Positions 23,157 through 43,000 of a stretch of 64,000 bases of DNA are shown here, in pieces. Numbering within the stretch: the stretch's first letter is position 1; every line of letters starts with the position of its first letter. The stretch spans positions 39,270 to 103,269 of the forward strand of contig DATIWX010000044.1 of assembly GCA_035519135.1 (NCBI GenBank). The letters run 5' to 3'. This stretch comes from Burkholderiales bacterium. GTDB taxonomy: Bacteria > Pseudomonadota > Gammaproteobacteria > Burkholderiales > SG8-39. A program made the translations under genes and the position numbers. The notes under the pieces are model-generated. The model made no database searches. It was not told the origin of the DNA and saw only the letters and a program-made list of their open reading frames with translations.

Positions 23157-24827
23157 TCAGGGCGATGCGGTTCGGGCGCGTTTACCCGGCGCGACGCCAG
23201 CGCTCGAAGATTCCAGGCGCTCGATCTCGTAGTCTGCGCCGTTGAAGCCCAACTCGGATGCCCGCCGGTACTCGGTCATTGCCTCCGGGATCCGGCCGAG
23301 GTGCTCCAGGACGAGCCCCAGCCTGTGGTGCCCAAGCGCGCCTTCGGGCCTCAACTCGACCGCGCGTGACAGATACGGCAGGGCCAACTGGTACTCGCCA
23401 AGCATGAAGTGGATGAAGCCGCGGGCGAAATAGCAGTGCACCGTCCCCGGATATTGTTGCATGCACCTGTCGGCAACCTCGATGGCTTTATCCGGCCTCC
23501 CCCCGTAGGCGTACTCCCTGCCCGCCATATACAGGGTACGCGAGCCCCAGGGAACGGGCTTCGCCGGAAGCTTGAGGTAGGCGTCCTCCCATAGAAGCAC
23601 GGGCCTGGAGAATGTCACTAAACGGTCGTATGCCTGGTACAGGAGTACGGGGATCGCAAGCGCGGCGGCGGCCACCCCTGCCCGCAAGGGAGCCGCACTG
23701 AGGAGCGCCGCGATGGCGATCATCACACCGGGTGCCCAGAGATAGCTCCGATAGAGCACGAACGGCTCTTGAAATCGCACAGTACTGAACTCGACCAGGA
23801 ACAAGATCCACGTGAAGAGCATCCCGAACCCGACCATTCCGATTCGGCCTCTCCGCAGGAGAAGGAGAAAGCCAACCGCGGCAAAAGCGAGGAAGGCGAA
23901 GACCTTGAGAAGGATCCAGCCGGCCGACCAGGTGTCGAAGAAATCGACCCGGACATCGATGGACATCGCACCCGTAGCCGGCCAAAGCCAGAGTGCGAGG
24001 TACTTGAAGAACAGCCCCGCCTGGGTGACCACACTCATCGGCCAGGACAAGTCGGCGATGGCGTGTCCGAAGGTGCCCTCGAGCTGGCTTGCCAGGCCGC
24101 CGAAATCGGGCTCGTACGCCGCGCCGATCAGCCATTTCCTGCCGAACGTCACGAAAATAGCCGCTGGAGCGCAGGCTGCCAGGTAGATTGCGGCGTGACG
24201 AAATGCAAAGCGCCGTTCCCCCACCAGAACTGCAGCGAGTGCCGCCGCGCCGGGCAACAGAACGCTATGCTCCTTGGACAGAACGGCCACCGAGTACATG
24301 AGCGCGGCTGACAGCGCGTCGCTATGCCGGCCACGCGTCAATCCGCGCAAGAACAACACGATCGAGAGGAGCGAGAACAGGGTGGCGAAGACGATCGTCC
24401 GCTGCACCAGATATCCGGCGCCGTAGACCGCGACCGGGTGGATCGCGAACACGGCGGCTCCGACACACGCCCAGAGTGCTGCTGTCGACTCGGTTCGCAA
24501 CCCCGGCCTGTCCGAGGGCGAAACAGCACGCAGCAGGTCGTAGATCAGCTTGCACAGTGCGAGCGCACAGGCAAGGTGGAAGACCAAGCTGACGATGCGG
24601 TGCGCCCGCATGCCGCCCACCTCGATTTCGGTGATGGCAAGCGAGAAATACGGCGGGAGACGCATGTCCAGGCCGAACGGGTGGGTCGCGTAATACGCGA
24701 ACTTATACCCGGAGAAGAATTGCCAGTCGTCGAATACTCTCGGATTGTCCAGGAAAGGCCAGTACAGGCCGCCGGCGAGAGCCACGACCAGAGCGACGCC
24801 CGTCCAGGTGAAAAGAGTTCGGCGCAT
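23157..24827 (-). CDS. TMTC-like (GT-C fold) multi-TM protein with C-terminal TPRs; putative pilin glycosyltransferase
   Basis: First-loop FDD, FAIHP....GYLVQR, LSKE, RSYL motifs, then TPRs; directly downstream of pilin. Confidence 0.7.
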   Translation of the reverse strand: MRRTLFTWTGVALVVALAGGLYWPFLDNPRVFDDWQFFSGYKFAYYATHPFGLDMRLPPYFSLAITEIEVGGMRAHRIVSLVFHLACALALCKLIYDLLRAVSPSDRPGLRTESTAALWACVGAAVFAIHPVAVYGAGYLVQRTIVFATLFSLLSIVLFLRGLTRGRHSDALSAALMYSVAVLSKEHSVLLPGAAALAAVLVGERRFAFRHAAIYLAACAPAAIFVTFGRKWLIGAAYEPDFGGLASQLEGTFGHAIADLSWPMSVVTQAGLFFKYLALWLWPATGAMSIDVRVDFFDTWSAGWILLKVFAFLAFAAVGFLLLLRRGRIGMVGFGMLFTWILFLVEFSTVRFQEPFVLYRSYLWAPGVMIAIAALLSAAPLRAGVAAAALAIPVLLYQAYDRLVTFSRPVLLWEDAYLKLPAKPVPWGSRTLYMAGREYAYGGRPDKAIEVADRCMQQYPGTVHCYFARGFIHFMLGEYQLALPYLSRAVELRPEGALGHHRLGLVLEHLGRIPEAMTEYRRASELGFNGADYEIERLESSSAGVAPGKRARTASP

Positions 24828-24880: not shown

Positions 24881-25372
24881 CTAGCCGCGGCAGGAACCCG
24901 GCAGGAACTTCGGGTTCAGGTTGGTGCCGTCGATCGTCGAACCGCAGCGCCAGGCGTAGACGGTCGTCCCGCCCACGTCGGCCTTGGTCAACATGGTCGT
25001 CGCGTCCTTCATTGGAGCCAAGGTAACGATCGAGCCATTGATGCCGGCGCTCGCCGCAAAGCCCTGGATCGCGATCTGGACCAGGCCATCCACGGTGGTG
25101 TGGATGCTCGCCACGTACTTCGAGGCTCCGCCCACGGTCGCCGCAGTGACTTCACAGCCCCAGGAGTCGGCCGCCTGCGTAGCGCTGTTGCCGCTTTGGT
25201 AGATCTCGGTCACCGAAGTACGGCACGCGCTGGCCGCCAGAATCACCTCGGAGATCTTCGCCCGGTTGCTGTAGTCCTGGTACGCGGGGAGCGCCACCGC
25301 GGCCAGAATGCCGATGATCGCGACCACGATCATCAACTCGATCAAGGTAAAGCCCTTCTGCAGCGTTCTCAT
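24881..25372 (-). CDS. pilA: Type IVa major pilin
   Basis: Short leader, [29 protein letters not shown]-terminal disulfide loop WRC...PGSC. Confidence 0.95.
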
Positions 25373-25419: not shown

Positions 25420-25436
25420 AGCAAACCGCGTGCCTG
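25420..25436 (-). promoter_or_regulatory. sigma54 (-24/-12) promoter of pilin
   Basis: Minus strand CAGGCACGCGGTTTGCT with exact GG-N10-GC spacing; AT-rich tract immediately upstream. Confidence 0.85.
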
Positions 25437-25667
25437 CCCCAGGTAAGATCCTATCTTATTGTAATTAATGCACTTTAATGCCTTCCTTAAGCTTCCCGCG
25501 AAGGAATGCACGGTCCGGCTATCCCTCATTAGGGCACAGAGTGACGCTACGCGTCACCCCCTTCGCGACCAGAAAGAAAAGGAGGGAGGCGCGGGCGGAA
25601 ACCTGCTCGACCCCACTGGGGTATTCTTCCTCAGTGGCAAAATCAGGCTCCGATCTCGCGAACGTTG

Positions 25668-25976
25668 ATGCTGTTCTCGTCCAGCAAGTTTGACACCCTG
25701 GTGCAGGGGCTGAGGCAACGGATCAGCGTGCGTTTCCCGCCGGTGATCGCCAACGACCCGGAGCGCGCCGTTTCGCGGACCCGAATCGAGGAAATACTGG
25801 ACGAGATTTTCGCCGAGACTCTGCAACCCGACAGTGAAGGCCAGATCGGGTTCCTGAGCAAAGCGCGGCTGAGAAACGCATTCAAGCGGGAATTGCGGGA
25901 AATTGGGTACGACGAGAAATTCGTCGATTTCGCCACCGACAAGCTCATCGGACGGCTGGTGCGCGCGGCCGGATAG
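25668..25976 (+). CDS. Hypothetical protein, paralogue of 57447-57785
   Basis: Shares RFPP and KA.L.N.FK..LRE.GY...F.D with the second copy. Confidence 0.75.
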   Translation: MLFSSSKFDTLVQGLRQRISVRFPPVIANDPERAVSRTRIEEILDEIFAETLQPDSEGQIGFLSKARLRNAFKRELREIGYDEKFVDFATDKLIGRLVRAAG

Positions 25977-26008: not shown

Positions 26009-27664
26009 TCAGGGCGCGAACCCGGGTATCTTGCTCTCGTCGACCTCGTCGATCTGATCCCGGGGGAGAAACTGCTCGGCGTAGCGTAGATACACCTTCT
26101 TGCGAACAAATATGTCGAACAAATCCGGATCGATATGGCCGTTCAGCCTGAAATTGCCGAGAATCCTGAGCGACTCGGAGAGAGTCTTGCCGCGCTTGTA
26201 GGGTCTGTCCTTGGCGGTCAGCGCCTCGAAGATGTCGGCGATCCCCATGACTCTGGCCTGCACGGACATCTGGTCGCGCGTCAGTCCCCGTGGGTAGCCC
26301 TTTCCGTCCATGCGCTCGTGGTGGCCTCCGGCATACTCGGGCACATTGCGCAGATGCCTGGGCCATGGAAGCGCCTCTAGCATCTTGATCGTGGCAACGA
26401 TGTGATGATTGATCGTTTCACGTTCCTCTAGAGTAAGGGTACCTCGAGCGATCGTCAGATTCTTGATCTCATCCGGGGTGAGAAAGTCCGCGGTATTCCC
26501 CGAGACGTCGATCCATTTTCGGCCGGTGCCGATGCGATTCACCCGCTCCCGGGCCTCCGCCTCCATGACCTCGCCTCCGATATTGCAATGACGAAGGAAT
26601 TCCCGCTCGCTATCGAGCTGGCGCCGGCTTTCCGCGCAGTCCCGGTCGATCTGCATGAGTTGCTCGTGCGCGGCACTCTCGCTCAGCCCTGGTTTGCGAA
26701 GGACCTCGAGCTTGCGCTTCAGGCCCTCGATGTCCACGTCGCGTTTCAACACCTCGAAGCGCGTGTCCACCAGATTGATGCGATCGAAGATCGTTTCGAG
26801 CTTGGTTGCCTTGTCCACGACGTGCACCGGGGTCGTCACCTTGCCGCAGTCGTGCAGCAAGCCCGCTATCTTCAGCTCGTAGCGGTCCTTGTCGGTCATC
26901 TTGAATTCCTGAAGCGGGCCGTCGTAGGTCTCGTTGACGGCCTCGGCCAGCATCATCGTGAGTGCCGGAACACGCTGACAGTGGCCGCCGGTATAGGGGG
27001 ACTTCTCGTCGATCGCGGTGTTGATGAGCGCAATGAAAGACTCGAACAGCACTTCCAGCTGGTTGATGAGATGCCGGTTCGTGAGCGCAATCGCGGCTTG
27101 GGACGCGAGCGACTCTGCTAGACGCTGATCCGAAGACGTGAATGGCCCGACCTCGCTTGCTGTATGGGCGGTGCGGTTGATCAACTGGAGCACGCCGATG
27201 ATCTCGCCCTCGTGGTTCTTCATCGGCACGGTGAGAAACGCCTTGGAGCGGTACCCCGTCTTCTTGTCGAAATTGCGCGTGCCCGAGAAGTCGAAGCCCT
27301 CCTCCGAATACGCGTCTGCGATGTTGACCGTCTTGCCGGTCAAGGCGGCGTACGCCGCGACCATCTGGTTGTTCGGCTTGCCGTCCTTGCCGTACAGGTG
27401 CACCGGGTAAAAGGGTATGGGATTGCCGGTGGTACCGCCCATGGCGATGTCCAGCGCCTCGTTGCGCATGATCGCAAACCGGAGCCGGGGGCCTTCATCG
27501 GAGGGTTCCAGCACATACAGGGTGCCCCCGGCCGCGCGCGTGATCGTTTTTGCGGCGAGCAGGATCTTCTCCAGCAGGTGGTCGATATCCCTTTCCTGCG
27601 AGAGCGCGGAGCCTATCTCGTTGAGTTGCTCGAGACGGCGAAACAGATCCTCGTCGGTCTCCAA
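26009..27664 (-). CDS. GAF + HD-GYP phosphodiesterase
   Basis: GAF (DKKTGYRSK..LTVP, QLIN); HDCGK, HHERMDGKGYP, ADIFEALT; TTG start. Confidence 0.92.
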   Translation of the reverse strand: METDEDLFRRLEQLNEIGSALSQERDIDHLLEKILLAAKTITRAAGGTLYVLEPSDEGPRLRFAIMRNEALDIAMGGTTGNPIPFYPVHLYGKDGKPNNQMVAAYAALTGKTVNIADAYSEEGFDFSGTRNFDKKTGYRSKAFLTVPMKNHEGEIIGVLQLINRTAHTASEVGPFTSSDQRLAESLASQAAIALTNRHLINQLEVLFESFIALINTAIDEKSPYTGGHCQRVPALTMMLAEAVNETYDGPLQEFKMTDKDRYELKIAGLLHDCGKVTTPVHVVDKATKLETIFDRINLVDTRFEVLKRDVDIEGLKRKLEVLRKPGLSESAAHEQLMQIDRDCAESRRQLDSEREFLRHCNIGGEVMEAEARERVNRIGTGRKWIDVSGNTADFLTPDEIKNLTIARGTLTLEERETINHHIVATIKMLEALPWPRHLRNVPEYAGGHHERMDGKGYPRGLTRDQMSVQARVMGIADIFEALTAKDRPYKRGKTLSESLRILGNFRLNGHIDPDLFDIFVRKKVYLRYAEQFLPRDQIDEVDESKIPGFAP

Positions 27665-27707
27665 GATCCCCCCGGGGCGGCTGTGGATCAGGCAGCCTGG
27701 CGCCGCC

Positions 27708-30074
27708 TTACTTGATGCAGACCGCGCGGACCTGCGGCATGTCGGTGATACCCTGAAGCACCTTTTCGATCCCGTCCATCTTCAGGGTCCGCATGCCTTC
27801 CTCAAGACTGACGGCCAGGATCTCCGCGACGCGTGCATGCTCCTGGATCAGTTTCTTGATGGGGTCCGACGCGAGCAGCAGCTCATGCAGGCCGACTCGC
27901 CCTTTGTAGCCCGTATTGCCGCAAGTATCGCAGCCCTTGGCCTTGTAGAGAGTAAACTGGCCCTTGTCGTTCGCGTAGCTCTTGGCGAGGTCCCTGTAGA
28001 CGTTCTCGTAGGCGGACTTGGCGTCCTTCTTGAACGGTCCTGTGTTGAGGAGTTCCGAGCAGTACTCCTGGAGAAGGTGCTTCATCTCCTCTCCGCCGGC
28101 AACGTAGGGCTGCTTGCACTTGCTGCATAGCCGCTTGGCGAGCCGTTGCGCGAGGATTCCCAGCAGCGCATCGGCGAAATTGAAGGGATCCATGCCCATA
28201 TCGAGCAGCCGGATGATGGACTCCGGCGCGCTGTTGGTGTGCAGTGTCGCGAAAACCAAGTGGCCGGTGAGGGACGCCTCGATACCCGTGCCGGTGGTCT
28301 CCTTGTCGCGCATTTCGCCGACCATGATGATGTCCGGGTCGGCGCGGAGGAATGATTTCATCACGGCCGCGAAGTCGAGTCCCGCCTTCTTGTTGACCTG
28401 AACCTGGCGCAGGCCCTTCTGCGTAATCTCAACCGGGTCCTCGGCGGTCCAGATCTTGGTATCCGAGGTATTGAGGAAACCCAGGACTGAGTGCAGCGTG
28501 GTGGTCTTCCCGGAACCGGTCGGGCCGCAGACGAAGAAAAGCCCGTAGGGCTTGCTTACGGTGTCCTTGAGCTTGGGCAGGTTCGAGGGCGACAGCCCGA
28601 GCTTGTCGAGCGGGATCGGCTCCCCTGCCGCAAGGATACGCATGACCACGTCCTCGACGCCACCCTGGGAGGGGATCGTCGCCACCCGCAGCTCGATGTC
28701 GAGCGGACCGAATTTCTTGAACTTGATCTTGCCGTCCTGCGGTTTGCGCTTTTCGGAAATATCGAGGTCGCACATGATCTTGATGCGCGCGACGATCGCA
28801 TTCCGGTAAGCGCCCGGAACTTCGATGTAAGGGAACAGCGAGCCGTCTTTCCTGAACCGGATCTCGGTTTTCGCCTTGCCCGGATAGGGTTCGATGTGAA
28901 TATCCGAGGCCCCCTGGTTGTAGGCGTCGATGATGATCTTGTTGACCAGCTTGACCAGCTCGTTGTCCGCCGCCGCGGAAACATCGTCATCCCCACCGGC
29001 CTCTACCGGCCCTTCGTCATCCTCGAGGCCAGAGAGCATGTCTCCGATGTCGCCGCTGTCGACCGCCTCCGCCCCGTAGAAGGCCTTGAGCGTGTCCTTG
29101 AACTCCTTGAGGGTGGTGACGCGATACACGAGCTTACGGCCCGGAAAGACATTCTGGACGATACGTGAACTCTTTATCCTCTCCGGATCGAGACAGAGGA
29201 TCACCAGACCTTCCTTCGAGTCCTCGATGGGAACCCATTGATTGGATTCCACGTACTCGCGCTTGAGGTTCTTCAGCAGATCCATCGGCTTGATGCGATC
29301 CGGCTTGAATGGCTCGTAGGGCGTTCCGAAGAATTTCGCCAGCGCTGCACCGATGGCAGGAAGCTTGACCTGGAACTCCTCGGCCAGCACGTTCTCGACA
29401 TCGACGGCCTTCTTGCGCGCGGAGCGCGCAGCCAGCTCGAACTCCGCCGCGGAGATCACAGCGTCGCTGACGAGAAAGTCATATTTCGTCTTGAGAACCT
29501 GCGGCTTCTGACGCTGCTTGAGAGCGATGGCGAGCGTCTGGCAGAGCTCGGTTACGCCCTCCTCGGCCAGCTGGCCGAAGGGCACGCCGGCCTTGTTGTT
29601 GATCAGCTGGACTACGCCGACCAGCTCACCCCCAAGCTCTGCAACCGGCGCAACCAGCATCTGCTTGGTCCGGTAACCGGTGCGCTTGTCCACCTCCTGC
29701 AGGAAACGCAGGTTAGGGTTATGGGTCCTCAGCTCGCTCTCGTCGTAGACATCCTTCAGGTTGAGCATTTTCTTGGACAGGCCGACGAAGCCTGCGATCG
29801 AGTGCTCGGCGATCGGAAGTTTCAGGTCCTTGAACGAGTTCAGCCCGGTCTTGACCTTGGAGACGATGGTCTGCTTGTCCTCGCCGACGGTGTAGATCGT
29901 GAGCCGGTCGGCGTTGAACAGGGTGCAGATGTCCGCGCTGACCTCCAGCATGATCTCGTCCACGTTGCTCGTGGCGTGGATCTTGTTGGTGACCGTCTGG
30001 AGGTTCTTCTGGAAATTCAACCGGCTGTTGACGTCGCCGGCCGCGCCCACGTGCGTCTGTAGTACCGCGCTCAT
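27708..30074 (-). CDS. GAF-domain PilB/GspE-family assembly ATPase
   Basis: N-terminal GAF; ASDIHIEP, Walker A GPTGSGKT, EDPVE, Walker B IIMVGE, His box LTGH..TLH, CSKC/CDTC. Confidence 0.93.
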   Translation of the reverse strand: MSAVLQTHVGAAGDVNSRLNFQKNLQTVTNKIHATSNVDEIMLEVSADICTLFNADRLTIYTVGEDKQTIVSKVKTGLNSFKDLKLPIAEHSIAGFVGLSKKMLNLKDVYDESELRTHNPNLRFLQEVDKRTGYRTKQMLVAPVAELGGELVGVVQLINNKAGVPFGQLAEEGVTELCQTLAIALKQRQKPQVLKTKYDFLVSDAVISAAEFELAARSARKKAVDVENVLAEEFQVKLPAIGAALAKFFGTPYEPFKPDRIKPMDLLKNLKREYVESNQWVPIEDSKEGLVILCLDPERIKSSRIVQNVFPGRKLVYRVTTLKEFKDTLKAFYGAEAVDSGDIGDMLSGLEDDEGPVEAGGDDDVSAAADNELVKLVNKIIIDAYNQGASDIHIEPYPGKAKTEIRFRKDGSLFPYIEVPGAYRNAIVARIKIMCDLDISEKRKPQDGKIKFKKFGPLDIELRVATIPSQGGVEDVVMRILAAGEPIPLDKLGLSPSNLPKLKDTVSKPYGLFFVCGPTGSGKTTTLHSVLGFLNTSDTKIWTAEDPVEITQKGLRQVQVNKKAGLDFAAVMKSFLRADPDIIMVGEMRDKETTGTGIEASLTGHLVFATLHTNSAPESIIRLLDMGMDPFNFADALLGILAQRLAKRLCSKCKQPYVAGGEEMKHLLQEYCSELLNTGPFKKDAKSAYENVYRDLAKSYANDKGQFTLYKAKGCDTCGNTGYKGRVGLHELLLASDPIKKLIQEHARVAEILAVSLEEGMRTLKMDGIEKVLQGITDMPQVRAVCIK

Positions 30075-30196
30075 TGGCAATCCACCCTAGTATCCAGCAC
30101 CCGAAATAGCCTCAGAATCAATTACTTTACCACCGTTCAGTCCCCTGTGGCTCGACCGTCCCCGCAACCCTGACAAGCGAAAATCACACCCGCCCG

Positions 30197-31267
30197 TCAC
30201 CGGCGCTTCGCATCTCCCCAGAGGCCGCCGGCGAGCACGAACGCCCGGTACCCGCGTTGCGCAAGGAGAAACGCCCCCGCGGCGCTGCGACGCTCGCTCT
30301 GGCAGTAGAGCACGTACTCCTTTCCCTTGTCCAGGGCACCGAACGCATTGCGGATTTCCGACAATGGAATGTTGATGGCCCCCGGAAGTTTGTCGTACTG
30401 GTACTCCGACGGGTAGCGTACGTCGATCCATTGAGCTCCGCTCGCCACCTTCGCGCGCGCCTCTTCGGCGGACACTCTGTGCAGCAGCGGCTCCCTCAGC
30501 AGCTCGACGAAATCCTTCTTTGCAAGCCTGAGCAGGGCACCGTCGCTCTTCATGGTCACGGTGGCGTTGCGTTTGACCTCCGACACCAGCGCTTCCTCGC
30601 CGAACGCATCCCCGCTCTTCAAGTCGGCGAGCAGCATGGACACGCCCCCGACCATTCGCTCTACCTTGCACCGCCCGCTCTCGATCACGAAATAGAAGTC
30701 GCCTTCCGCCCCCTCGCGGATCACGACGTCGCCTTTCTTGACTTCGATGCGCTCGAACCGGCGCAGCAACTCGTCGATATGCGCAGGGGGCAGGTGCGAG
30801 AAAGCCCCGTACTTCAGGCTGCTGGCGCTGAACATCCCGGACATGACGGCCCAGCTGGCAGATGAACGGCCCTTTTCGGTATTGTTCCTCGCTGGGACTT
30901 CTGCAGACGCAACCTGATCCCACGTAGCCATGACATCCAGCAGGTCGTCGTCAATACGCAGCAACTCCACGTCGGTGATCGCCTTGGCGCTGGTGAAGAC
31001 TTCGCCTCGATGAGCGAGGGGATACCGCGATCGGTCTGACCCTCCCACCAGTACCTTCGACGAACCGTCCGGATACGTCAGCACCAGCTCTCCCCGAAGC
31101 AGAAAAACCGCCTGACCGGCCATGTTGCGTACCAGGAACGGATCCGAGTTCTTTCCGACCGGCTCCACCTGGCAAAGACCTGCGAGCTCGTTGAGCCTGG
31201 TATCGGGTAAGGACCCGAGCGGCTCGAAATTTCTCAGCACCTCGACGCTTACCCTAGCCGCGCACAT
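30197..31267 (-). CDS. cNMP-binding + rhodanese domain protein
   Basis: FGEEAL....RNATV phosphate-binding cassette; IDVR..EY...LPGAINIP, YCQSERRS. Confidence 0.88.
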   Translation of the reverse strand: MCAARVSVEVLRNFEPLGSLPDTRLNELAGLCQVEPVGKNSDPFLVRNMAGQAVFLLRGELVLTYPDGSSKVLVGGSDRSRYPLAHRGEVFTSAKAITDVELLRIDDDLLDVMATWDQVASAEVPARNNTEKGRSSASWAVMSGMFSASSLKYGAFSHLPPAHIDELLRRFERIEVKKGDVVIREGAEGDFYFVIESGRCKVERMVGGVSMLLADLKSGDAFGEEALVSEVKRNATVTMKSDGALLRLAKKDFVELLREPLLHRVSAEEARAKVASGAQWIDVRYPSEYQYDKLPGAINIPLSEIRNAFGALDKGKEYVLYCQSERRSAAGAFLLAQRGYRAFVLAGGLWGDAKRR

Positions 31268-31312
31268 CGCCCGTTCCCCGCTCTCGGACAGTGCATCGCC
31301 CCGATCTCTTTC

Positions 31313-32080
31313 TCAAAACTCGAACACCTGATTGTTCTGCAGCATCCGCGGCCGGTACTGGCCGGCGTCCTCCTCGATCTCCTGCATCGTCAGCTCGATT
31401 TCTCCGGGTTTGAGGTGCGTGATGTAGATTTCCGCGCTGCGTTCGAGTTTCGCCAGCTCCTCGGCAAGCATGCTCGGGCACAAGTGCTTTGAAATGACCG
31501 CCAGCTCCCTTTCGCGGTTGCAAAACGCTGTCTCGATGATCAGGTACCTGAGGTTGGAAATCCTGTTGACGACCGACCAGAGGGGATCGTTCGTCGTCGT
31601 GTCGCCGGTAAACACCAGGCTGCCCTTTCCCGAGTCCAGGTGGTACCCGACCGCCGGCACGACGTGATTGGCCGGAAGCGCCGTGACTTTGCGCTTCTTC
31701 AACTCCACCGTGTCGCCGACCTGGATCTCCCGGTAGCGCAGAAAGGGTTTGTCCGGGCTCGGGATCTGGGAAAAATCGGGCCAGATGCTCCAATTGAAGA
31801 TGTGGTTACGAAGAATCTCCAGCGTCGCCGGAACAGCCCAGAGCGTCAGAGGCTGGTCGCGCATGCCCCCGACCGTATCCACCATGAAAGGAATGCTGGC
31901 GACATGGTCGAGATGCGAGTGCGTGAGGAAAACATGATCGATCAGGGAAAGCTCCGTGAGCGAGAGGTCCGCCACACCTGTCCCGGCGTCGACGAGAATG
32001 TCGTTGTCGAGAAGCATTGAGGTCGTGCGCAGATGCCGGCCCCCGATTCCACCGCTGCAGCCCAGAATCCGGAGCTTCAT
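31313..32080 (-). CDS. Class II (MBL-fold) 3',5'-cyclic nucleotide phosphodiesterase
   Basis: LGCSGG, DAGTG, THSHLDH, HIFN..IWPDF, TGDT, HL.P, HLKP. Confidence 0.87.
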   Translation of the reverse strand: MKLRILGCSGGIGGRHLRTTSMLLDNDILVDAGTGVADLSLTELSLIDHVFLTHSHLDHVASIPFMVDTVGGMRDQPLTLWAVPATLEILRNHIFNWSIWPDFSQIPSPDKPFLRYREIQVGDTVELKKRKVTALPANHVVPAVGYHLDSGKGSLVFTGDTTTNDPLWSVVNRISNLRYLIIETAFCNRERELAVISKHLCPSMLAEELAKLERSAEIYITHLKPGEIELTMQEIEEDAGQYRPRMLQNNQVFEF

Positions 32081-32096
32081 GGCTCGGCGTCCATCG

Positions 32097-34358
32097 CTAT
32101 TTCTCGTCGAACACCGTGACCCCGTCCCAGTCGGGTGGCGGGGGATTGCGACGCTTCACCGCCACCTCGCTTGCGTACATTTTGTAGAGGGCGCAATCGG
32201 GGTTCACGCGCTGGAGGTTCAGCAGGCCGACTTCGACTTGGTCCCACTGCCGGGCGCGGTACTGGCGGAGCGTCTGGTGCCATAGCTTGAGCTCGTCGAG
32301 CACCTTCTTTTCGACGTGGGTTTCCATCCCGATCGGCTCGTAGATCGTGATCGCCTCATCCTTGCCCTTGACCTTGATCTTGTCGATCTCCTTGAAAACC
32401 ACATCCTGGACGAGCTTGCGGCTCGCTTCTCCGACCAATATGCCGACCCCGTAGTGCTTGGTCCTTCCTTCCAGCCGGGAGGCGACGTTCACGGCATCGC
32501 CCATGGCAGTGTACGCCTTGCGCTGCTTGGACCCCATGTCGCCTACCCGGACGCTTCCGGAGTTGACCCCGATGCCGATCTTCAGGGTCGGCCAGCCCCG
32601 CGCGGTGAACTTCTGATTCAAGATGTCGCACTGGCGCAGCATCTCCATGGCCGCGAGAATGCCGTTGCGCGGGTGGGTGTTGTCTTCCACGGGGGCATTC
32701 CAGAAGGCCATGATCGCGTCCCCGATGTACTTGTCGAGCGTGCCCCGATACTTGCCCCGGATGATGTCGCTCATGTCGGTCAGATACTCGTTGATGTATT
32801 CGCGCAGGTGCTCGGGGCTCAACGCCTCGGAGATACTGGTGAAGCCACGCACATCGGAAAACAGAATGGTGAGCTCGGCATTGCGCGGCTCCATCGTATA
32901 CTGCTCCGGGTCCTCCGCCATCTTGTCCACGAGCTCGGGCGGGACATACTGCCCAAAGAGCTCGGTGAATTGCCGCTTGGAGCGTGCTTCCACGAAGTAT
33001 CCATAGGCCATGTTGACCGTGTATAGCGTTGCTGTCATGAGGATCGAAGCCGCAAGCGGCAGCACCAGGCCCGAGTACGACCACAACGCCACGTCCAGCA
33101 GGGTAATCAGCACCACCCCCGCTAGGGCCGCGGCCGAAGCCCACAGCGGTGCAAGCAGCGGAATCAGGAACGTCAGCGCGATGCCGCCGATGACAAGCAA
33201 TATCACTTCCGCCCCCAGCATGTAGGGCGGTTTTTGCTTGAGCTTGCCGTCGAGCATGCCCGCGATCAGGTTGGCGTGGATCTCCACGCCGGGATACACG
33301 TTGTCGACCGGCGCCGAGCGAAGATCGAACAGGCCCGGGGCGGTCGCCCCGATCACCGCGATCTTCCCCCGAAGCTTCTCCGGCGCCACCCTGTCTGCCC
33401 AGATGTCGGAGAACGAGATATAGGGGAAACTGCTCCTTGGACCCCGATAGGGAACCAGCGACGCAAGTTCCTCGTCCACAGGGATCTTGAGCGGGCCGAC
33501 CTCGAGCCACTCTACGCCCGTGTATCCCCGGGTGACAAAACGGTCGGGGATGGCATTGATGGTGACACCGGGCAGCTTGATCGTCGCGGTCTTGTTTCGC
33601 GCGGCTTCCTGGATGCCCAGGTACATCCGCACGATCGCCAGGGAAAAGGACTCGTAGTACTTTCCCTTGTATTCGGCGAGCATCGGCACGCGTCGCGACA
33701 CCCCGTCGTCGTCCACGCGCGGATTGAAGTGCCCGGCACTGACCGAAGATTGGAATTCGGGCAGGTTTCCCGTATATCCGCGCCAATCCAGGACCGTGAT
33801 CCTCCTCGCGCTGAACGTCTCGGCGGGAAGGACGGGCTCCGGAAGGGCGCCGCTCTCGACGGCGTTCTTGTCGCTGTTGAAGTAGTAGCCGAGAACCACC
33901 GGCCGCCCACGGATGAAATTCGCGAACTTCGTGTCGTAGTCGAGCTCGGGGCGCAGTTGAGCGAGAGCCGACTGGAAAGCGCCGATGTCCTTGAGCCGCG
34001 TCTTGCCGAGCCTCTCGAGCGCCGGGAGACCGGAGCTCTCGTCCGGCTCCGAGAATACGACATCGTAGGCGACTATGAGGACGCCGTACTTATCGAACAG
34101 CTTCTCAAGGAGAGCGGTCTGCTTGTCTCGGCTCCAGGGCCAGCGGCCCAGTGCGCGCGGGTCCAGGCTGCGCTCGTCGATGTCCAGGATGACGACCCTG
34201 TCATCGACCGTGCCCGGCATGGTCAGCCGGAGACGGTAGTCGTAGATGATATTGTCGAGCTGGGTAACGAACCTTATCTGGTAGAGCTTTGCCGCGTGTC
34301 CCAGAAACACCAGCGTAACGAGGAGACCAAGCGCAATCCGGACGATGTGCTGCTTCAG
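32097..34358 (-). CDS. CHASE2 class III adenylate cyclase
   Basis: CHASE2 (DIDERSL..GRWPWSR, PGVEIHA), 3 TMs, FSDVRGFT, DKYIGDAIMAFW, YTAMGDAVNVASRLE; probable CTG start 34358. Confidence 0.92.
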   Translation of the reverse strand: MKQHIVRIALGLLVTLVFLGHAAKLYQIRFVTQLDNIIYDYRLRLTMPGTVDDRVVILDIDERSLDPRALGRWPWSRDKQTALLEKLFDKYGVLIVAYDVVFSEPDESSGLPALERLGKTRLKDIGAFQSALAQLRPELDYDTKFANFIRGRPVVLGYYFNSDKNAVESGALPEPVLPAETFSARRITVLDWRGYTGNLPEFQSSVSAGHFNPRVDDDGVSRRVPMLAEYKGKYYESFSLAIVRMYLGIQEAARNKTATIKLPGVTINAIPDRFVTRGYTGVEWLEVGPLKIPVDEELASLVPYRGPRSSFPYISFSDIWADRVAPEKLRGKIAVIGATAPGLFDLRSAPVDNVYPGVEIHANLIAGMLDGKLKQKPPYMLGAEVILLVIGGIALTFLIPLLAPLWASAAALAGVVLITLLDVALWSYSGLVLPLAASILMTATLYTVNMAYGYFVEARSKRQFTELFGQYVPPELVDKMAEDPEQYTMEPRNAELTILFSDVRGFTSISEALSPEHLREYINEYLTDMSDIIRGKYRGTLDKYIGDAIMAFWNAPVEDNTHPRNGILAAMEMLRQCDILNQKFTARGWPTLKIGIGVNSGSVRVGDMGSKQRKAYTAMGDAVNVASRLEGRTKHYGVGILVGEASRKLVQDVVFKEIDKIKVKGKDEAITIYEPIGMETHVEKKVLDELKLWHQTLRQYRARQWDQVEVGLLNLQRVNPDCALYKMYASEVAVKRRNPPPPDWDGVTVFDEK

Positions 34359-34392
34359 GCTTCCTCCCTGCGGCAGGTCCCGGAGCCCGGGC

Positions 34393-35172
34393 TCAGGCCT
34401 TGATGAAGAATTCCATCTTGACCCCGGCGAGCTCGATCACGTCGTGGTCGTTCAACGCGTGAGCCTGGGCATCGAGCGGCTTGCCGTTCACCACGGGGAA
34501 GCTCGCCCCCTCGACGTGGGTGATGAAGAAACCCTGAGGCCTGCGCGTGATGACGGCCACCTGCACCCCGGGCTTGCCGAGCGTCGTAAGGGGCTTGGTG
34601 AGATCAAGCTCCTTGCCGGCGTTGGCCCCTGAAAGAAGCTGCAGAGCCGCGGATTTTTGCGAGGCAGCTGCCGGCTTGGCCGATACCGGAGGCATGGTCG
34701 TAGCGGGCCCCGGCCCTCCGACGGTGTCCCCCATGGCCTTCGCGACGGCGGGCGCCGGTGCGGGTGCCGCCGCGGGAGCGGCGTGCGCAGGAGCGGGTGC
34801 AGCGGGGGCCGGAGCGGGCTTGATCGCACCCGGCCGGAGCACCATCGTCTTTTCGAAATCGGCCGCCTTGGCGACTCCGGCGGGCGTCTCGTTCACATAC
34901 TTGAGCTTGTACTTGCCCAGTTCGATGATGTCGTTGTTCTGAAGAAAATGCTTCTTGATCGACTGACCGTTCACGACCGTCCCGTTCGTGCTTCCCAGGT
35001 CCTCGAGAAACGAGTCTTGCAGGATAGTTACGATGACGGCGTGTTCCCCGCTTACCGCGAGGTTGTCGATCTGGATGTCGTTATGCGGTTTGCGGCCGAT
35101 GGTGGTACGTTCCTTGGTCAGGTTGATTTCCTTGAGAACCAGGCCGTCCATGCTCAGTATCAGCTTCGCCAT
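34393..35172 (-). CDS. FHA domain protein (FHA, Pro/Ala linker, degenerate FHA)
   Basis: IGRKPHND...VSGEHA...DLGSTNGT; second domain has LGKPG without the conserved Arg. Confidence 0.9.
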   Translation of the reverse strand: MAKLILSMDGLVLKEINLTKERTTIGRKPHNDIQIDNLAVSGEHAVIVTILQDSFLEDLGSTNGTVVNGQSIKKHFLQNNDIIELGKYKLKYVNETPAGVAKAADFEKTMVLRPGAIKPAPAPAAPAPAHAAPAAAPAPAPAVAKAMGDTVGGPGPATTMPPVSAKPAAASQKSAALQLLSGANAGKELDLTKPLTTLGKPGVQVAVITRRPQGFFITHVEGASFPVVNGKPLDAQAHALNDHDVIELAGVKMEFFIKA

Positions 35173-35192
35173 AGCAGTATCCCTCTGCTCAA

Positions 35193-36017
35193 CTATCTAA
35201 ACCAGCTCATCATCTTGCCCATGATGCTGCGCGGTGCGGGGAATTCCCGCAGCACCCGAACGAGTATTACCGAAATATTGTCCCGGCCCCCGTTGTCATT
35301 TGCTGTCTGCACCAGATGCTGGGCGCACAGCTTCAGGTTGGAGCTCAGCGTCTGCAACGCCAGGCCGATATCTTCGTCGCCCACCATATCACAAAGGCCG
35401 TCCGAGCAGAGCAGATAGATGTCTCCCGGCTGGGTGTCGTGATCGTGTATTTCGGGCTCGACCGTGGGGTCGATGCCGAGCGCGCGCGTGACGAGGTTTT
35501 TGTTCTGCGACTGCTTGGCCTGCTGTGGCGTGATCACGCCGCTGTCGATCTGCTCCTGGAGGAGCGAGTGATCCTTGGTGATCTGCTTTAGCTCGTCGCC
35601 CCGCATCCGGTACAGGCGCGAATCGCCGATGTGCGCCACGGTCATCTTGTTGTCGTAGAACAAGGCCACCACCAGCGTCGTCCCCATGCCGGCATACTGC
35701 GGTTGGCTCTGCGCCGCCTGATAGATCGAGGTGTTCGCCTTGGCTATCTGATCGTGCAACAACTGGTGCGCGATCAGCTGTCCGCTGGATGCGTCGGTTT
35801 CGTACGGGGTTCTTTTCTCCAGCAGCTGTTGCAGTTCGGTAATGATCACCGTCGTCGCCATGCCGCTTGCCACCTCGCCTGCGTTGTACCCCCCCATGCC
35901 GTCCGCCAGCACGACAAGACCCTTTTCCCCGTCGGAGGCGATCGAATCCTCGTTGTGGGCGCGCACCATCCCCGGATCGGTGCAACTCGCGATCTCTAGC
36001 GCCCCCGACAATGTCAT
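35193..36017 (-). CDS. PP2C-family Ser/Thr phosphatase (Stp1-like)
   Basis: RAHNED, ADGMGG, GMGTT, HIGDSR, TKDHS, CSDGL, GGRDN. Confidence 0.94.
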   Translation of the reverse strand: MTLSGALEIASCTDPGMVRAHNEDSIASDGEKGLVVLADGMGGYNAGEVASGMATTVIITELQQLLEKRTPYETDASSGQLIAHQLLHDQIAKANTSIYQAAQSQPQYAGMGTTLVVALFYDNKMTVAHIGDSRLYRMRGDELKQITKDHSLLQEQIDSGVITPQQAKQSQNKNLVTRALGIDPTVEPEIHDHDTQPGDIYLLCSDGLCDMVGDEDIGLALQTLSSNLKLCAQHLVQTANDNGGRDNISVILVRVLREFPAPRSIMGKMMSWFR

Positions 36018-36034
36018 GGTCCCCAATTCGGATC

Positions 36035-38608
36035 TCAGAGGCTGATGTCGACCCCGGTGCCGGTCGCAGGCGCGCCGGCACCGCCAAAGGCGGCCCGCAA
36101 TTCGAAAGCGAATTCCTCCCCTGTCTGGTGCCGCTGGTCGGCATCCTTCGACATGGCCCTGTCGAGAAAGGCAACGAATCTCGGGGGGAGAGAGGGGTTG
36201 TACTGCAGGATGTCCGGCGCGTTCTCGTTGGCGATCTTGTACATGAGCTGCGCCATCGAGTCGCCTTCGAAGGGGAGCCTCCCGCAGGAGAGCTGGTACA
36301 GGCTCACGGCCAGGGAGAACAGGTCGCTGCGGCCGTCGATCTTCTTTCCTTGCAGCTGCTCGGGCGACATGTAGGACGGCGTCCCGAGCACCATGCCTGT
36401 CTTGGTCTTGGAGGAGTCGGTGATCCTGGCAATGCCGAAGTCGGTCACTTTGACCACGTCGCTTTCCGGCTCGTACATGATGTTCGCGGGCTTGACGTCG
36501 CGGTGCACGACGTTTTGCTTGTGCGCATACCCGAGCGCGTCGGCCACGCGGGCAATGATCGACACCACCTTGTCGATCGGGAGCAGGTTGCCCGGCTTGG
36601 TGAACGGCACGAGATCCTTGCCCTTCAGGAGCTCCATGGCGATATAGCACAGGTCGTGCTCCTCGCCCGCATCGTAGATGGTCACGATGTTGGTGTGGCT
36701 CAGGCGCCCCGCCGTCTCGGCCTCGCGGAAGAACCGCTCCTTGACCTCGGCCAGCTCGTCCGCTTCGAATTCCTGCGAAAGGGCCATGGTCTTGATCGCA
36801 ACCACCCGGCTGATCTTGGGGTCCCTGCCCTGGTACACGACGCCCATTGCACCCTTGCCGAGCTCCTTCTCCACCTGATAGCGCCCGAGCATCGGCTTCT
36901 CGGTCCCGCCGCCGAGCGCCAGCGTTCCGCCCGGATGGCTCTGCGTCCCGCCGAGAATGACCGTCTCCGACATCTGCTTGGCGCGCGAGAGCCTCGCCTC
37001 GAGATCCCGGAACTTCGGGTTGTGGCCGGCCATATAGCCGAACACCGCCTCGGCCTTGTTGAACTGGCGCTTGCGCTCGAAATCCAGGGCGAGGTTGTAG
37101 AGGTTGTCCATGACGGTGTCGTCGAGCGGCACCTTGCGGAAGTAGTCGAAGGCCATGTCGAGCTGGCCCTGGCCCTGGAACGCCAGGCCGAGCATGCGGG
37201 CGTTCGCGGCGGATTGCGCGTCCGAGACTTCCTTGCCGCGCTCCGTGACCATGAAGCGCTTCGTGACGAGAAGCACGTGCCCCACGACCAGAAGGGTCAG
37301 CGGCAACATGAACTGCAGCCACATCCCCTGGCCCGTCATCAGCACGAAGTGGGCGGCGAGCAGCACTGCCACGATGCCGGCGGTAACGCCCGCACCCAGC
37401 CCCGCCGAGAGACGCGGCAGCAGCGCAATCAGATAGGCCGCGACCAGCAGAAAGACCAGCCTTTCGACGATCCATCCCCAGGTCGGTACGACGAAGAAAT
37501 GCCCCTGCAGGAGCGAGGAGACCGTGTGCGCCAGAAGCTCGACGGATGCCGTGGCCGGACTCACCGGCGTGACGAAGATGCTGCCGACGCCGGCCGCGGT
37601 CGGGCCGATGAGCACGATCTTGTCGCGGTATTTCTCCGCGGGAATCTTGCCGCTGGCGACGTCGTAGAACGAGTCCTCCTGGATCGCCGGCTTGCCGTCG
37701 CGGTCCTTGTAGAAGTAGGTGAACATCTGCATCGTGGGATCGGCGCTCACCCTGAAATTGCCGATCTGCAGCGCTTCACCCGGACGGATCTGGATGTCCT
37801 TGGCGCTCAGGTTGAGGCTCTTCGCGACTAGCATTGCCGCCACGGACGGGTAGAACTCGTCGTAGTACGTGACCGCCAGCGCTTCGGTCCGGATCGCTCC
37901 GTCCACGTCGGGCACCGCATTGAGATGCCCCACGGCCGCCGCCGCCGCGCCTAGGCTGTCGACGACCGGGATTTCCACCCCGCTGGTCGATAGCGGCCTG
38001 TCGTCGCCGATCCCCTGGATTGCAAGCGCATTCTTGCGCACGAAGTCAGGAAGGGGTTTGTCGGGCTTGCCGCGCGGCTCGCCGAAAGTGAACAGCATCG
38101 GCAACACGACGTTGCCTGCCTTGGCGAAGCTGTCCGCCAGTTTCCGGTCGGTGTTCAGGGCTGCCTCCGCTTCCTGCAAGGTCGCACCCATTTCAACGAC
38201 GTCCGGTGACACCCCTCGGGGCGGCGAACTCGCGTCTGTGCCTGCCGGGACGATCCGGTGGTAGGTGTCCAGGAGGCGGTTGATGTAAGTCAGCCCCGGA
38301 TCGAGTTGCGGTTCGGAAAAAAACACCGTGTAGCCGATGACCTTTGCTTTCGCGCTCGCCAAACGCTCGATCATCTTCGCGTGAATCTCGCGCGACCAGG
38401 GCCAGCGGCCGATATTGTCGATGCTCTGCTTGTCGATCGCGATGATCGCGACCTTGTCGGACGGCGTTCGCGAGGAGGCCTTGACGCCCCAGTCGTAGGC
38501 GGCGCGCTCCAGGCCCTGAATCAGCTGGCCCCCCCCTACGAACAAGAGCACGAGCGACACCACCAGACCGAGAAACCAGTCTTTTTTCCAGAAGCCCGCT
38601 TTGGTCAT
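36035..38608 (-). CDS. CHASE2 membrane Hanks-type Ser/Thr kinase
   Basis: CHASE2 (AIDKQS..IGRWPWSR), TMs, GKGAMGVV, VAIK, HRDVKPAN, DFG, GTPSYMSPE. Confidence 0.94.
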   Translation of the reverse strand: MTKAGFWKKDWFLGLVVSLVLLFVGGGQLIQGLERAAYDWGVKASSRTPSDKVAIIAIDKQSIDNIGRWPWSREIHAKMIERLASAKAKVIGYTVFFSEPQLDPGLTYINRLLDTYHRIVPAGTDASSPPRGVSPDVVEMGATLQEAEAALNTDRKLADSFAKAGNVVLPMLFTFGEPRGKPDKPLPDFVRKNALAIQGIGDDRPLSTSGVEIPVVDSLGAAAAAVGHLNAVPDVDGAIRTEALAVTYYDEFYPSVAAMLVAKSLNLSAKDIQIRPGEALQIGNFRVSADPTMQMFTYFYKDRDGKPAIQEDSFYDVASGKIPAEKYRDKIVLIGPTAAGVGSIFVTPVSPATASVELLAHTVSSLLQGHFFVVPTWGWIVERLVFLLVAAYLIALLPRLSAGLGAGVTAGIVAVLLAAHFVLMTGQGMWLQFMLPLTLLVVGHVLLVTKRFMVTERGKEVSDAQSAANARMLGLAFQGQGQLDMAFDYFRKVPLDDTVMDNLYNLALDFERKRQFNKAEAVFGYMAGHNPKFRDLEARLSRAKQMSETVILGGTQSHPGGTLALGGGTEKPMLGRYQVEKELGKGAMGVVYQGRDPKISRVVAIKTMALSQEFEADELAEVKERFFREAETAGRLSHTNIVTIYDAGEEHDLCYIAMELLKGKDLVPFTKPGNLLPIDKVVSIIARVADALGYAHKQNVVHRDVKPANIMYEPESDVVKVTDFGIARITDSSKTKTGMVLGTPSYMSPEQLQGKKIDGRSDLFSLAVSLYQLSCGRLPFEGDSMAQLMYKIANENAPDILQYNPSLPPRFVAFLDRAMSKDADQRHQTGEEFAFELRAAFGGAGAPATGTGVDISL

Positions 38609-38897: not shown

Positions 38898-39830
38898 CTA
38901 GCTGCCTAGCAGGGTACCTACGGCAAGGCTGTTCTGGGCTACGAATTCCGCAGAGGAGACCTTCTTGCCTTCTTCATGCTTGGCCTTGAGCACCTCGATC
39001 CGCCCTCCCTGGGCGGTCACGAAGAAGCTGTGCGGGCCGACCTCCGAAATCTCGCCGATCTTGCCCTTGACCGCGCCGAAAGTGCGGATCAAGTGCTTGC
39101 GGCTGTCGAAAATCTGCACCTTCTTGCCGTTCAGCGTTGTCCAGGCCCCGGGAGCCGGGTTGCAGCCGCGTATCACGTTGTAGACGAAATCGACGTGGTT
39201 CGCCCAGTTGATCTTCGCCTCGGCGGCGCGGCACCAGCCTTCGTAGCTCGCCTGGCTCTCGTCCTGCACGGTTTCGCGATGCTTGCCCGCCACCACCAGG
39301 TCGGCCGCTTCCAGCATGGCCTTCACCCCCATCGGGAAGAGCCGGTCGAAATAGACGCTCCCGAGCGTGTCGTCGGCGCTGATCGGCGTCTCCTTTTGCA
39401 GGATTACCGGGCCTTCGTCGAGCCCGTCGTTCGGCCGGAAGATGGTCAGCCCGGTCTTGGTGTCGCCGCGGATGATGGGCCAGTTGATCGAGCTCGGACC
39501 CCGGTACTTGGGCAGCAGCGACGGATGGTACTGGATGGTGCCCTTCTTCGGGATCTTGACGAATTCCTGAGGGGCGAATTGCAGCACGAAAGCCATGATG
39601 CCTATTTCGGCATTGAGACCCCGCATCGCTGCTGCGGCTTCGGCGCTTTTCAGTGACGGAAACTGGAAGATCTTGACACCCTTCTCCTGGGCCGCGGTTT
39701 TCAACACATCGGCCTTCGCGCCTTCCTTCTCCGGCGCGCAGAAGACGCCCGCAACTTCGTCGCCGCGCGCGAGGAAGGCTTCGAGGACGGCTTTGCCGAA
39801 ATCCTGCTGTCCGATGATCGCGATCTTCAT
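38898..39830 (-). CDS. Formyltransferase-fold protein resembling the N-terminal domain of 10-formylTHF dehydrogenase
   Basis: MKIAIIGQQDFG, YHPSLLPKYRG, DGLDEGPVILQK, Fmt-like C domain; ATG 2 nt after frc stop. Confidence 0.85.
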   Translation of the reverse strand: MKIAIIGQQDFGKAVLEAFLARGDEVAGVFCAPEKEGAKADVLKTAAQEKGVKIFQFPSLKSAEAAAAMRGLNAEIGIMAFVLQFAPQEFVKIPKKGTIQYHPSLLPKYRGPSSINWPIIRGDTKTGLTIFRPNDGLDEGPVILQKETPISADDTLGSVYFDRLFPMGVKAMLEAADLVVAGKHRETVQDESQASYEGWCRAAEAKINWANHVDFVYNVIRGCNPAPGAWTTLNGKKVQIFDSRKHLIRTFGAVKGKIGEISEVGPHSFFVTAQGGRIEVLKAKHEEGKKVSSAEFVAQNSLAVGTLLGS

Positions 39831-39832
39831 GG

Positions 39833-41104: not shown

Positions 41105-41113
41105 GGTCGAATC

Positions 41114-42865: not shown

Positions 42866-42953
42866 GATGGTCTCCTTACGTGCAGTGCCCGGCCAGATAG
42901 GCGCCGGGGATCGAATTGGACCCAAAGTCTAGGATTGTTAAGGCCTTTCCACC

Positions 42954-42967: not shown

Positions 42968-43000
42968 TAAATCCCGCCTAATTGCCCGCTCACCCACCGC

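Follow-up and report, generated by a model that had tools for sequence, protein, structure and literature searches.

We report here on a cluster of eight genes that runs from position 38608 to position 26009, entirely on the minus strand, in a stretch of 64,000 nucleotides (nt) of contig DATIWX010000044.1 from assembly GCA_035519135.1. In the following, this whole stretch is called the window, and the source genome, which is 89.9% complete, is labelled G000. The cluster is arranged around a PilB-like ATPase with an N-terminal GAF domain (GAF-ATPase). Our analysis suggests that this ATPase is a type IVa extension motor which replaces PilB and which is gated directly by cyclic AMP (cAMP) through the GAF domain; we give this reading a probability of about 0.55. 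There is strong comparative evidence that the GAF-ATPase may substitute for PilB, and moderate evidence, drawn from the sequences, for a direct gating by cAMP. The cassette itself is real and conserved. It is apparently unstudied: we found no study of the cluster or of its motor in the literature, most subscription papers lying outside the coverage.

The GAF-ATPase and the missing PilB

The GAF-ATPase (788 amino acids (aa), 27708-30074, minus strand) consists, according to its domain matches, of a GAF domain (residues 12-190), a degenerate MshEN domain (about 197-335) and a motor (369-788) with four Zn cysteines. The alignments of homologues were built from the 80 best-matching loci and from 43 order-wide loci, two sets that are related and overlap slightly. 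In these alignments the motor residues K523, E587, C650, C653, C715 and C718 are each kept in 122 of 122 sequences, and in a structure comparison the fold of the motor matches that of PilF, PilB and GspE. All the hallmarks of an extension-type ATPase are found together, that is, an N-terminal MshEN/N1D domain, the Walker A and B motifs, the tetracysteine Zn site and the PilB/GspE fold.

G000 carries pilC-pilD, pilMNOPQ and pilT/U, and a profile search of this genome gave no match over the PilB cut-off. We compared the occurrence of the two motors in 100 genomes of the order, each at least 95% complete and evenly drawn; note that most of them are metagenome-assembled genomes and that the counts are correlations among kin. 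Fisher tests (p about 1e-10) are overstated since the genomes are kin, and they are not used as evidence. PilB is over its cut-off (TIGR02538) in 58 genomes, and the GAF-ATPase is present in 44, to which one GAF-only fragment has to be added. Both motors occur in 19 genomes, only the GAF-ATPase in 25, only PilB in 39 (one of these with the fragment) and neither in 17. Among the 42 genomes without PilB, pilM was found in 24 of the 25 that have the GAF-ATPase, as compared to 0 of the 17 that lack it; in other words, each of the 24 PilB-less genomes with pilM carries the GAF-ATPase. TfpB is over its own cut-off in 14 of the 25 GAF-only genomes, which leaves 10 genomes with pilM in which both PilB and TfpB are missing. 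Further extension-type ATPases are also encoded in these genomes.

The gene order around pilC allows a closer look at this replacement. The ancestral order is hlyC-pilB-pilC-pilD: pilB lies immediately upstream of pilC in 20 out of 20 examined PilB loci (20 of the 58), and hlyC precedes pilB in 14 of them. In the GAF-only genomes, the gene upstream of pilC is hlyC in 18 of 25 cases, another non-ATPase gene in 3, a relic of pilB in 1 and a GAF-family motor in 2 (one of the 25 genomes is not covered by this count, and the upstream flank of G044 is left out). In G000, pilC-pilD are found in the middle of contig C38, directly behind an hlyC-like gene. A gap in the assembly as the reason for the missing pilB was rejected, since pilC lies mid-contig with hlyC upstream and since the same pattern is seen in 18 of the 25 genomes.

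The relic (G097, L143:4140-4631, plus strand) is a C-terminal piece of 163 aa between hlyC and pilC that is 71% identical to the PilB of a sister genome; G053, which belongs to the same family, has the intact gene. In G035, the pilB slot is occupied by a hybrid gene (L132:2172-4100, minus strand, 610 aa), in which the N-terminal domain of PilB is joined to a GAF-family motor. Its N-terminus is 47-60% identical to PilB, and its motor is up to 80% identical to GAF-ATPases as against 41-42% to PilB. The same motor end stands before pilC in G082, a genome of the same genus, at the edge of a contig. An assembly artefact is unlikely to explain the hybrid, given that its DNA is only 80% identical to the genome's own GAF gene, that the end piece recurs in G082 and that, of the GAF-only genomes, just those of this genus keep PilZ.

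Indeed, PilZ, which binds the N1D domain of PilB (PMC11656802), was found in all 18 tested genomes with both the GAF-ATPase and PilB, in 2 of the 25 GAF-only genomes (both from the hybrid genus) and in none of the 17 genomes with neither motor. In these three groups, the presence of PilZ tracks the N-terminal domain of PilB exactly. A pilZ gene was not found in the G000 genome.

Furthermore, we searched the genomes of 50 of the 80 best-matching loci and found PilB in 26. Within these 50, for which the completeness is not given, PilB is absent from all five Nitrosomonas genomes and from all Gallionella, Sideroxydans and other Gallionellaceae genomes tested; pilM is present in 5 of 5 checked PilB-less genomes of this group. 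In Nitrosomonas Nm51, for example, pilM is found but no canonical PilB; both motors occur in Noviherbaspirillum sp. Root189. The pilus genes of Gallionellaceae have been described with no mention of pilB in the available part of that work (PMC3770913), and three PilB paralogues in Ramlibacter are mentioned, in the part available, without detail (PMC3164672).

PilB is generally regarded as an almost universal motor of pilus extension, with TfpB as the known exception. Compared with PilB (TIGR02538; the Geobacter structures 5TSH and 5ZFR and the Thermus PilF, 5OIU), the GAF-ATPase agrees in the fold of the motor, in the Walker residues and in the four cysteines of the Zn site, with 40-44% identity in the motor. 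It fills the functional gap left by pilB and, in one genus, also its gene position. On the other hand, it stays below the cut-off of the PilB family (481.5 vs 675.65 bits), has an additional GAF domain at the N-terminus, is not encoded beside pilC except in the hybrid genus, and does not co-occur with PilZ. It also stays below the cut-offs for TfpB (NF053534, 399.7 vs 850) and GspE (TIGR02533, 441.6 vs 630.25; the genome's own GspE on contig C77 scores 714.6). In our trees, the GAF-ATPases form a clade of their own (support 100) outside the PilB and TfpB clades; both trees were quick ones, the second calculated after five long rows had been taken out and the alignment thinned to 53. With TfpB of Acinetobacter baylyi, as presented in PMC8213720, the GAF-ATPase has in common that it would be a second extension motor from a separate clade, encoded away from pilC; TfpB, too, is found alongside PilB and might be the sole extension motor of some species. 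The two differ in that TfpB falls into another clade and has neither a GAF domain nor a signalling operon, and a true TfpB is found elsewhere in G000.

A candidate cAMP pocket and the enzymes beside it

Among the sequences in the PDB, the best match of the GAF domain of the ATPase is the cAMP-binding GAF domain of CyaB2 (E = 5.9e-28 with the single sequence, 1.5e-39 with the profile). It is well ahead of the others, and nearly all strong matches are GAF domains that bind cyclic nucleoside monophosphates (cNMP). In CyaB2, cAMP is contacted by R291, T293 and D356, and a comparison of the pockets also includes I308 and N359 (PMC4411481). The equivalents of the three contact residues are R57 (121/122), T59 (119/122) and D129 (122/122); at the position of I308 there is Val or Ile74, and at that of N359 a Thr, as in PDE2 and PDE10. 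The Arg, Thr, Asp and hydrophobic stack of a cNMP-binding pocket can thus be recognised in the sequence. R57 and D129 stay invariant even with six distant homologues (about 41% identity) in the alignment, and few positions of the domain other than those of the pocket are invariant. cAMP is the best guess for the ligand, with support from the adjacent genes for a phosphodiesterase (PDE) and a cyclase; we think that the GAF domain probably binds cAMP, which the CHASE2 cyclase would make and the neighbouring PDE would remove. CyaB2 and the PDE-type cNMP-binding GAF domains, together with the GAF-HD-GYP protein PmGH, provide the best sequence matches for both GAF domains of the cluster and for the HD-GYP domain; unlike the CyaB2 and PDE-type proteins, the ATPase has a single GAF domain on a motor and an incomplete NKFDE motif.

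The MshEN domain does not look like a c-di-GMP receptor. The tandem 24-residue motif of the RLG type that binds cyclic di-GMP (c-di-GMP), as defined in PMC5013675, is absent, and its place is taken by K197 (116/122), Tyr/Phe198 (122/122) and D199 (105/122); c-di-GMP binding by the GAF-ATPase was therefore rejected. Like the MshE/MshEN ATPases in that paper, the GAF-ATPase has a sensor of second messengers fused N-terminally to an extension ATPase, and it differs from them in the replaced motif and in the predicted ligand, cAMP, via the GAF domain. The GAF-MshEN-T2SSE architecture has been listed before, namely in Supplementary Table 4 of the same paper (2016), with Glov_1971 and for gamma- and deltaproteobacteria; a ligand, a function, an operon or a distribution in betaproteobacteria is not part of that table. 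Our statements on the distribution beyond the phylum are taken from this table.

The cyclase (about 753 aa, 32097-34358, minus strand) combines a CHASE2 with a class III cyclase domain. Its start is most likely the CTG at 34358, which is preceded by a GGAGG site and to which the homologues reach equally far; residue numbers are counted from the GTG at 34310 chosen by the ORF caller (ORF, open reading frame). The cyclase domain is closest to CyaB of Pseudomonas aeruginosa (3R5G, E = 4.5e-31), with which K527 and T601 align. We take 2W01 to be a guanylate cyclase; it has Glu and Gly at these specificity positions, unlike K527 and T601. D486, T601, N608 and R612 are each invariant among 75 homologues, K527 is conserved to at least 97%, and the two metal-binding Asp, the Lys and Asp/Thr purine pair and the Asn/Arg transition-state pair of class III adenylate cyclases are all present. 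The use of ATP, which the first-pass annotation had read from the Lys in DKYIGD and the Thr in YTAMG, is therefore supported by the alignment with CyaB and by the conservation. A second CHASE2-type cyclase gene of G000 (C125:131765-133606, minus strand) lies beside genes for an SH3-like and a peptidase-like protein.

The PDE (255 aa, 31313-32080, minus strand) has a metallo-beta-lactamase (MBL) fold. It matches PF02112 partially and above the cut-off (51.1 vs 23.7 bits), its best PDB match, 4OJV, is a cyclic-nucleotide PDE, and the seven metal ligands are each kept in 109 of 109 homologues; by score and metal ligands, it is classified as a class II-like MBL phosphodiesterase with cNMP as the predicted substrate. 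Between the PDE and the ATPase lies the gene of an accessory protein with a cNMP-binding and a rhodanese domain (356 aa, 30197-31267, minus strand), in which R233 of the phosphate cassette and the rhodanese C322 are each conserved in 39 of 39 homologues.

The last gene codes for a GAF-HD-GYP phosphodiesterase (551 aa, 26009-27664, minus strand) with the metal ligands, the GYP motif and the RxxK pair. This pair marks specificity for c-di-GMP in HD-GYP proteins, and trinuclear enzymes have a Glu (10.1101/2021.11.05.467447). In the enzyme of the cluster, Y224 aligns with the third-metal Glu of the PmGH type, presumably E185, so that a trinuclear site is not indicated and pGpG is predicted as the product. 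The protein is therefore a predicted binuclear c-di-GMP hydrolase. Apart from this Tyr, it differs from PmGH by a long insertion within the HD domain (about 115 aa, residues ~291-406, partly well conserved) and by the lack of an Arg in its own GAF pocket.

Organisation, conservation and surroundings of the cluster

The eight co-oriented, closely spaced genes with their named domains, as described in the first-pass annotation, were confirmed by the ORF list of the window and by domain searches. The ORFs have no internal stops, and the catalytic residues are kept in all eight genes, in line with the enzyme functions that had been assigned to the kinase, PP2C and FHA proteins, cyclase, PDE, cNMP-rhodanese protein, GAF-ATPase and GAF-HD-GYP protein. 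After correction of the starts (ATG 36017 for the PP2C), the genes are separated by 17, 20, 34, 16, 45, 122 and 43 nt, and such short gaps (16-122 nt) are compatible with a single transcript. The GC content of the cluster (60-64%) is similar to that of the flanks. Scans of the window for promoters (4 sites, 3.0 expected) and terminators (13, 12.0 expected) gave results near chance. In one soil metatranscriptome (word share 0.06, short contigs of relatives only), no piece bridged two cluster genes sufficiently, and we do not use it as evidence; a plasmid search gave no match to the cluster.

Dozens of genomes across the Burkholderiales (in the sense of GTDB) show the gene order kinase-PP2C-FHA-cyclase-PDE-(cNMP-rhodanese)-ATPase-HD-GYP, so that the expected conservation as a unit does hold across Betaproteobacteria, although the unit is modular. 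In the 32 loci of the order-wide set of 43 that have full flanks, the gene that most regularly accompanies the ATPase is that of the PDE (30 loci), followed by PP2C and FHA (28 each), HD-GYP (26), kinase and cyclase (17 each) and cNMP-rhodanese (5). All eight genes occur together in 5 of these 32 loci and in 11 of 43 close loci. Kinase and cyclase are concordant in 30 of the 32 loci (both in 16, neither in 14). In 21 GAF-ATPase genomes that had been picked for loci without kinase or cyclase, a genome-wide search found a kinase orthologue in 5 (one truncated) and none in 16; a cluster-type cyclase was found in 9 and not found in 12, all of which have other class III cyclases. Six GAF genomes without the CHASE2 cyclase (L273-L277, L279) have another cyclase in common (430-520 aa) that scores strongly and in which no sensor domain was recognised; it might serve them as an alternative source of cAMP. 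The kinase gene is split over several frames in G009 (L150:15508-17368) and truncated in G035 (L151:9707-10282).

A rearranged, divergent form, in which the cyclase, HD-GYP and/or PDE are transcribed away from the ATPase, was seen in six loci (L032, L035, L045, L063, L067 and L069, Noviherbaspirillum and Telluria included); the PDE of these loci is divergent (29-44% identity). In a sample of the phylum, 27 of 301 genomes gave a match. In 17 loci of another class, the ATPase is about 41% identical and is accompanied by the HD-GYP gene in 9 and by the cyclase gene in 4 of them, with no kinase, PP2C, FHA or PDE gene nearby, which suggests that the ATPase is the hub of the cluster. Two distant GAF-ATPases from genomes of another order (L239, L240) have no cluster gene nearby.

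The phosphorylation arm starts with a membrane Ser/Thr kinase (857 aa, 36035-38608, minus strand), in which a transmembrane segment, CHASE2, three further transmembrane segments and a TPR-like region precede a Hanks kinase domain. K606, H702, R703 and D723 are each conserved in 50 of 50 homologues, the juxtamembrane T549 in 48 and L552, at +3, in 49. The PP2C/Stp1-type phosphatase (274 aa, 35193-36017, minus strand) is above the cut-off of NF033484 (255.8 vs 230 bits). The FHA adaptor (259 aa, 34393-35172, minus strand) has a canonical FHA domain, an Ala/Pro linker and a conserved, degenerate FHA-like domain at the C-terminus. Its G26, S41, H44, N63 and T109 are each kept in 79 of 79 homologues; the invariant T109 stands in an otherwise variable linker, with Leu or Ile at position 112, that is at +3, in 77 of 79. 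A Thr with Leu or Ile at +3 fits the docking sites of FHA domains, and the arrangement presumably fits a switch that closes on itself, as in GarA and OdhI.

Such a membrane kinase, PP2C and FHA protein side by side are also the components of the threonine phosphorylation pathway (PpkA/PppA/Fha) of the type VI secretion system (T6SS). The absence of T6SS genes, noted before for the window, can be extended to the genome: a whole-genome search of the 89.9% complete G000 found no TssC/VipB. The kinase differs from that pathway by its CHASE2 and TPR regions, and the FHA protein stays far below the cut-off for TagH (37.2 vs 120.25); a link to a T6SS was rejected. Of the pilus or secretion motor that had been proposed as the output, the type IVa pilus machine is supported as the likely one, rather than a secretion system. 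As to the c-di-GMP part of the first-pass annotation, the HD-GYP degrader stands, whereas no c-di-GMP synthesis is encoded in the cluster and the motif by which MshEN domains bind c-di-GMP is missing from the ATPase.

The gene of the major type IVa pilin (163 aa, 24881-25372, minus strand; PF00114 and PF07963) is indeed near the cluster, 636 nt downstream, but not directly beside it, as an ORF of 103 aa on the opposite strand (25665-25976, plus strand; no Pfam or NCBIfam match) intervenes. Homologues of this ORF are found near the cluster end in 16 of 80 loci. Under a strict rule, the flanks of 11 out of 34 loci contain a pilin; when any match is counted, those of 20 out of 43 do. A site that resembles a sigma-54 promoter precedes the pilin by 48 nt (25420-25436, minus strand) and hints at a separate promoter for this gene; it is the sole match in the window, where 5.8 are expected by chance, and its position alone makes it suggestive. 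G000 has a second pilin copy, 96% identical (C95:22295-22783), about 3.5 kb from tfpB on a contig that also holds mshE. Downstream of the pilin follows a multi-transmembrane PMT-like protein with TPR (23157-24827, minus strand; PMT_2 below and TPR above the cut-off), which a few relatives also carry close to the cluster; it is not one of the eight and is a candidate pilin glycosyltransferase. Upstream (38898-43621) lie genes for a formyltransferase, a CoA-transferase III and an enzyme dependent on thiamine pyrophosphate, likely for oxalate catabolism, which were not seen within the conserved unit, and on the opposite strand a regulator of the CRP/FNR type.

PilG/H/I-like and PilJ/ChpA-like genes, assigned from sequence and order, are present in G000, so the cluster coexists with a Pil-Chp system. 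No CyaB was found in the genome, its sole MASE2 being fused to GGDEF. The CHASE2 cyclase could be fed by Pil-Chp or could stand apart from it. As in P. aeruginosa, cAMP would be tied to type IVa pili by a class III cyclase, and the Lys/Thr pair is identical in the two enzymes. There, however, cAMP works via transcription (PMC11656802) and the cyclase has MASE2 instead of CHASE2; here, the candidate receptor is the motor.

Proposed mechanism, alternatives and meaning

The mechanism that we propose can be given in steps of falling confidence. The ATPase would power the PilC/PilM type IVa machine where PilB is missing, and that it drives this machine is, judged from the comparison of genomes, quite probable. 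The CHASE2 cyclase would make cAMP, the adjacent PDE would clear it and the GAF domain of the ATPase would sense it. By analogy with CyaB2, cAMP would activate rather than inhibit the motor. The CHASE2 kinase and the PP2C may toggle the FHA adaptor via T109 and T549 of the kinase, as a second, optional input. Finally, the HD-GYP protein might lower c-di-GMP in step and thereby damp the separate MshE-type motor, which has an intact c-di-GMP motif.

Several observations weigh against a cAMP-gated replacement of PilB, and some of them are better accounted for by other explanations. The ATPase could be a helper or a signalling ATPase, with the pili of PilB-less genomes extended by TfpB, MshE or GspE or no longer made. 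G000 has four other extension-type ATPases (GspE, TfpB, an MshE-type ATPase with intact tandem motif and an ATPase on C49), and its TfpB (920.8 vs 850 bits) could extend pili alone, as was proposed for P. fluorescens A506 (PMC8213720). TfpB is also present in more than half of the GAF-only genomes, PilB and the GAF-ATPase coexist in 19, the family is a separate clade whose sistership with PilB is weak (SH-like approximate likelihood ratio test values of 91 and 87, with a long-branch warning), and the counts from kin genomes are not independent. But the helper explanation has to face the 10 pilM-positive genomes that have neither PilB nor TfpB, the 24 out of 24 association with pilM and the GAF-family motor in the pilB slot of one genus, and the GspE, MshE and C49 ATPases of G000 each adjoin their own platform gene. 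We therefore regard it as unlikely. A somewhat better, though still low, chance is given to an extension motor whose GAF domain has either no ligand at all or one other than cAMP, such as cGMP, a metabolite or a partner protein, the cyclase and PDE acting via CRP-type regulators or the cNMP-rhodanese protein. A fold comparison (with a GAF model of pLDDT, the predicted local confidence score, 91.6) did not single out a ligand, with PtsP GAF domains on top (Z = 21.6 and 20.9) and 1YKD in 23rd place (Z = 16.7). The NKFDE motif is kept only in part (N159 and F166 in 122/122, an acidic residue 172 in 116/122, the Lys one residue off and the Asp replaced), the unliganded GAF of PmGH shares the Arg and Asp/Thr pattern, and the isolated GAFb of CyaB2 binds both cAMP and cGMP (PMC4411481). 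Furthermore, there are 24 cNMP-binding matches in the genome, and the cluster cyclase is frequently absent. Against this stand the near-invariance of the pocket residues, the PDE next to the ATPase in 30 of 32 loci, where cNMP-rhodanese is found in only 5, and the other class III cyclases in 12 of 12 genomes without the cluster cyclase.

The cluster was originally taken for a self-contained circuit with two CHASE2 sensors. In its strict form, as an indivisible eight-gene unit that requires both sensors and is independent of Pil-Chp, this is quite improbable. Kinase and cyclase are indeed gained or lost together, the gaps suit one transcript and CyaB was not found; however, the kinase was not found genome-wide in most of the 21 selected genomes, and "self-contained" is an overstatement, because the full set of eight is limited to 5 of the 32 order-wide loci (and to 11 of the 43 close ones) and Pil-Chp genes are present in the genome. 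The 17 loci of the other class, with no kinase, PP2C, FHA or PDE beside the ATPase, also speak against a replacement of PilB by a cAMP-gated motor. Least credible of all is the idea that the genes came together by chance, or that a phosphorylation trio left over from a T6SS lies beside unrelated genes. Such trios are known from T6SS loci (PMC5995506) and the FHA protein has a weak TagH match, but the low TagH score, the genome without TssC and above all the conservation, with PP2C and FHA adjoining the ATPase in 28 of 32 loci from many families, already contradict it.

Control of the motor by a second messenger is known for c-di-GMP, and cAMP is known to act via transcription (PMC11656802); in the available text of this 2024 review of PilB control, the word GAF does not occur. 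We would tentatively, and at slightly less than even odds, go further and see in the GAF-ATPases a third, widespread class of type IVa extension motors, gated by cAMP through the GAF domain and tuned by Thr phosphorylation, that has displaced PilB and PilZ in about a quarter of the sampled betaproteobacterial genomes, Nitrosomonas and Gallionellaceae included, the relic and the hybrid being signs of a takeover in progress. The natural PilB/GAF hybrid would indicate which part of the motor requires PilZ. If the reading is true, it accounts for genomes that have a full pilus machine yet no pilB, and numerous bacteria of the environment, nitrifiers and iron oxidisers included, would build their pili with another motor, one that itself reads cAMP.

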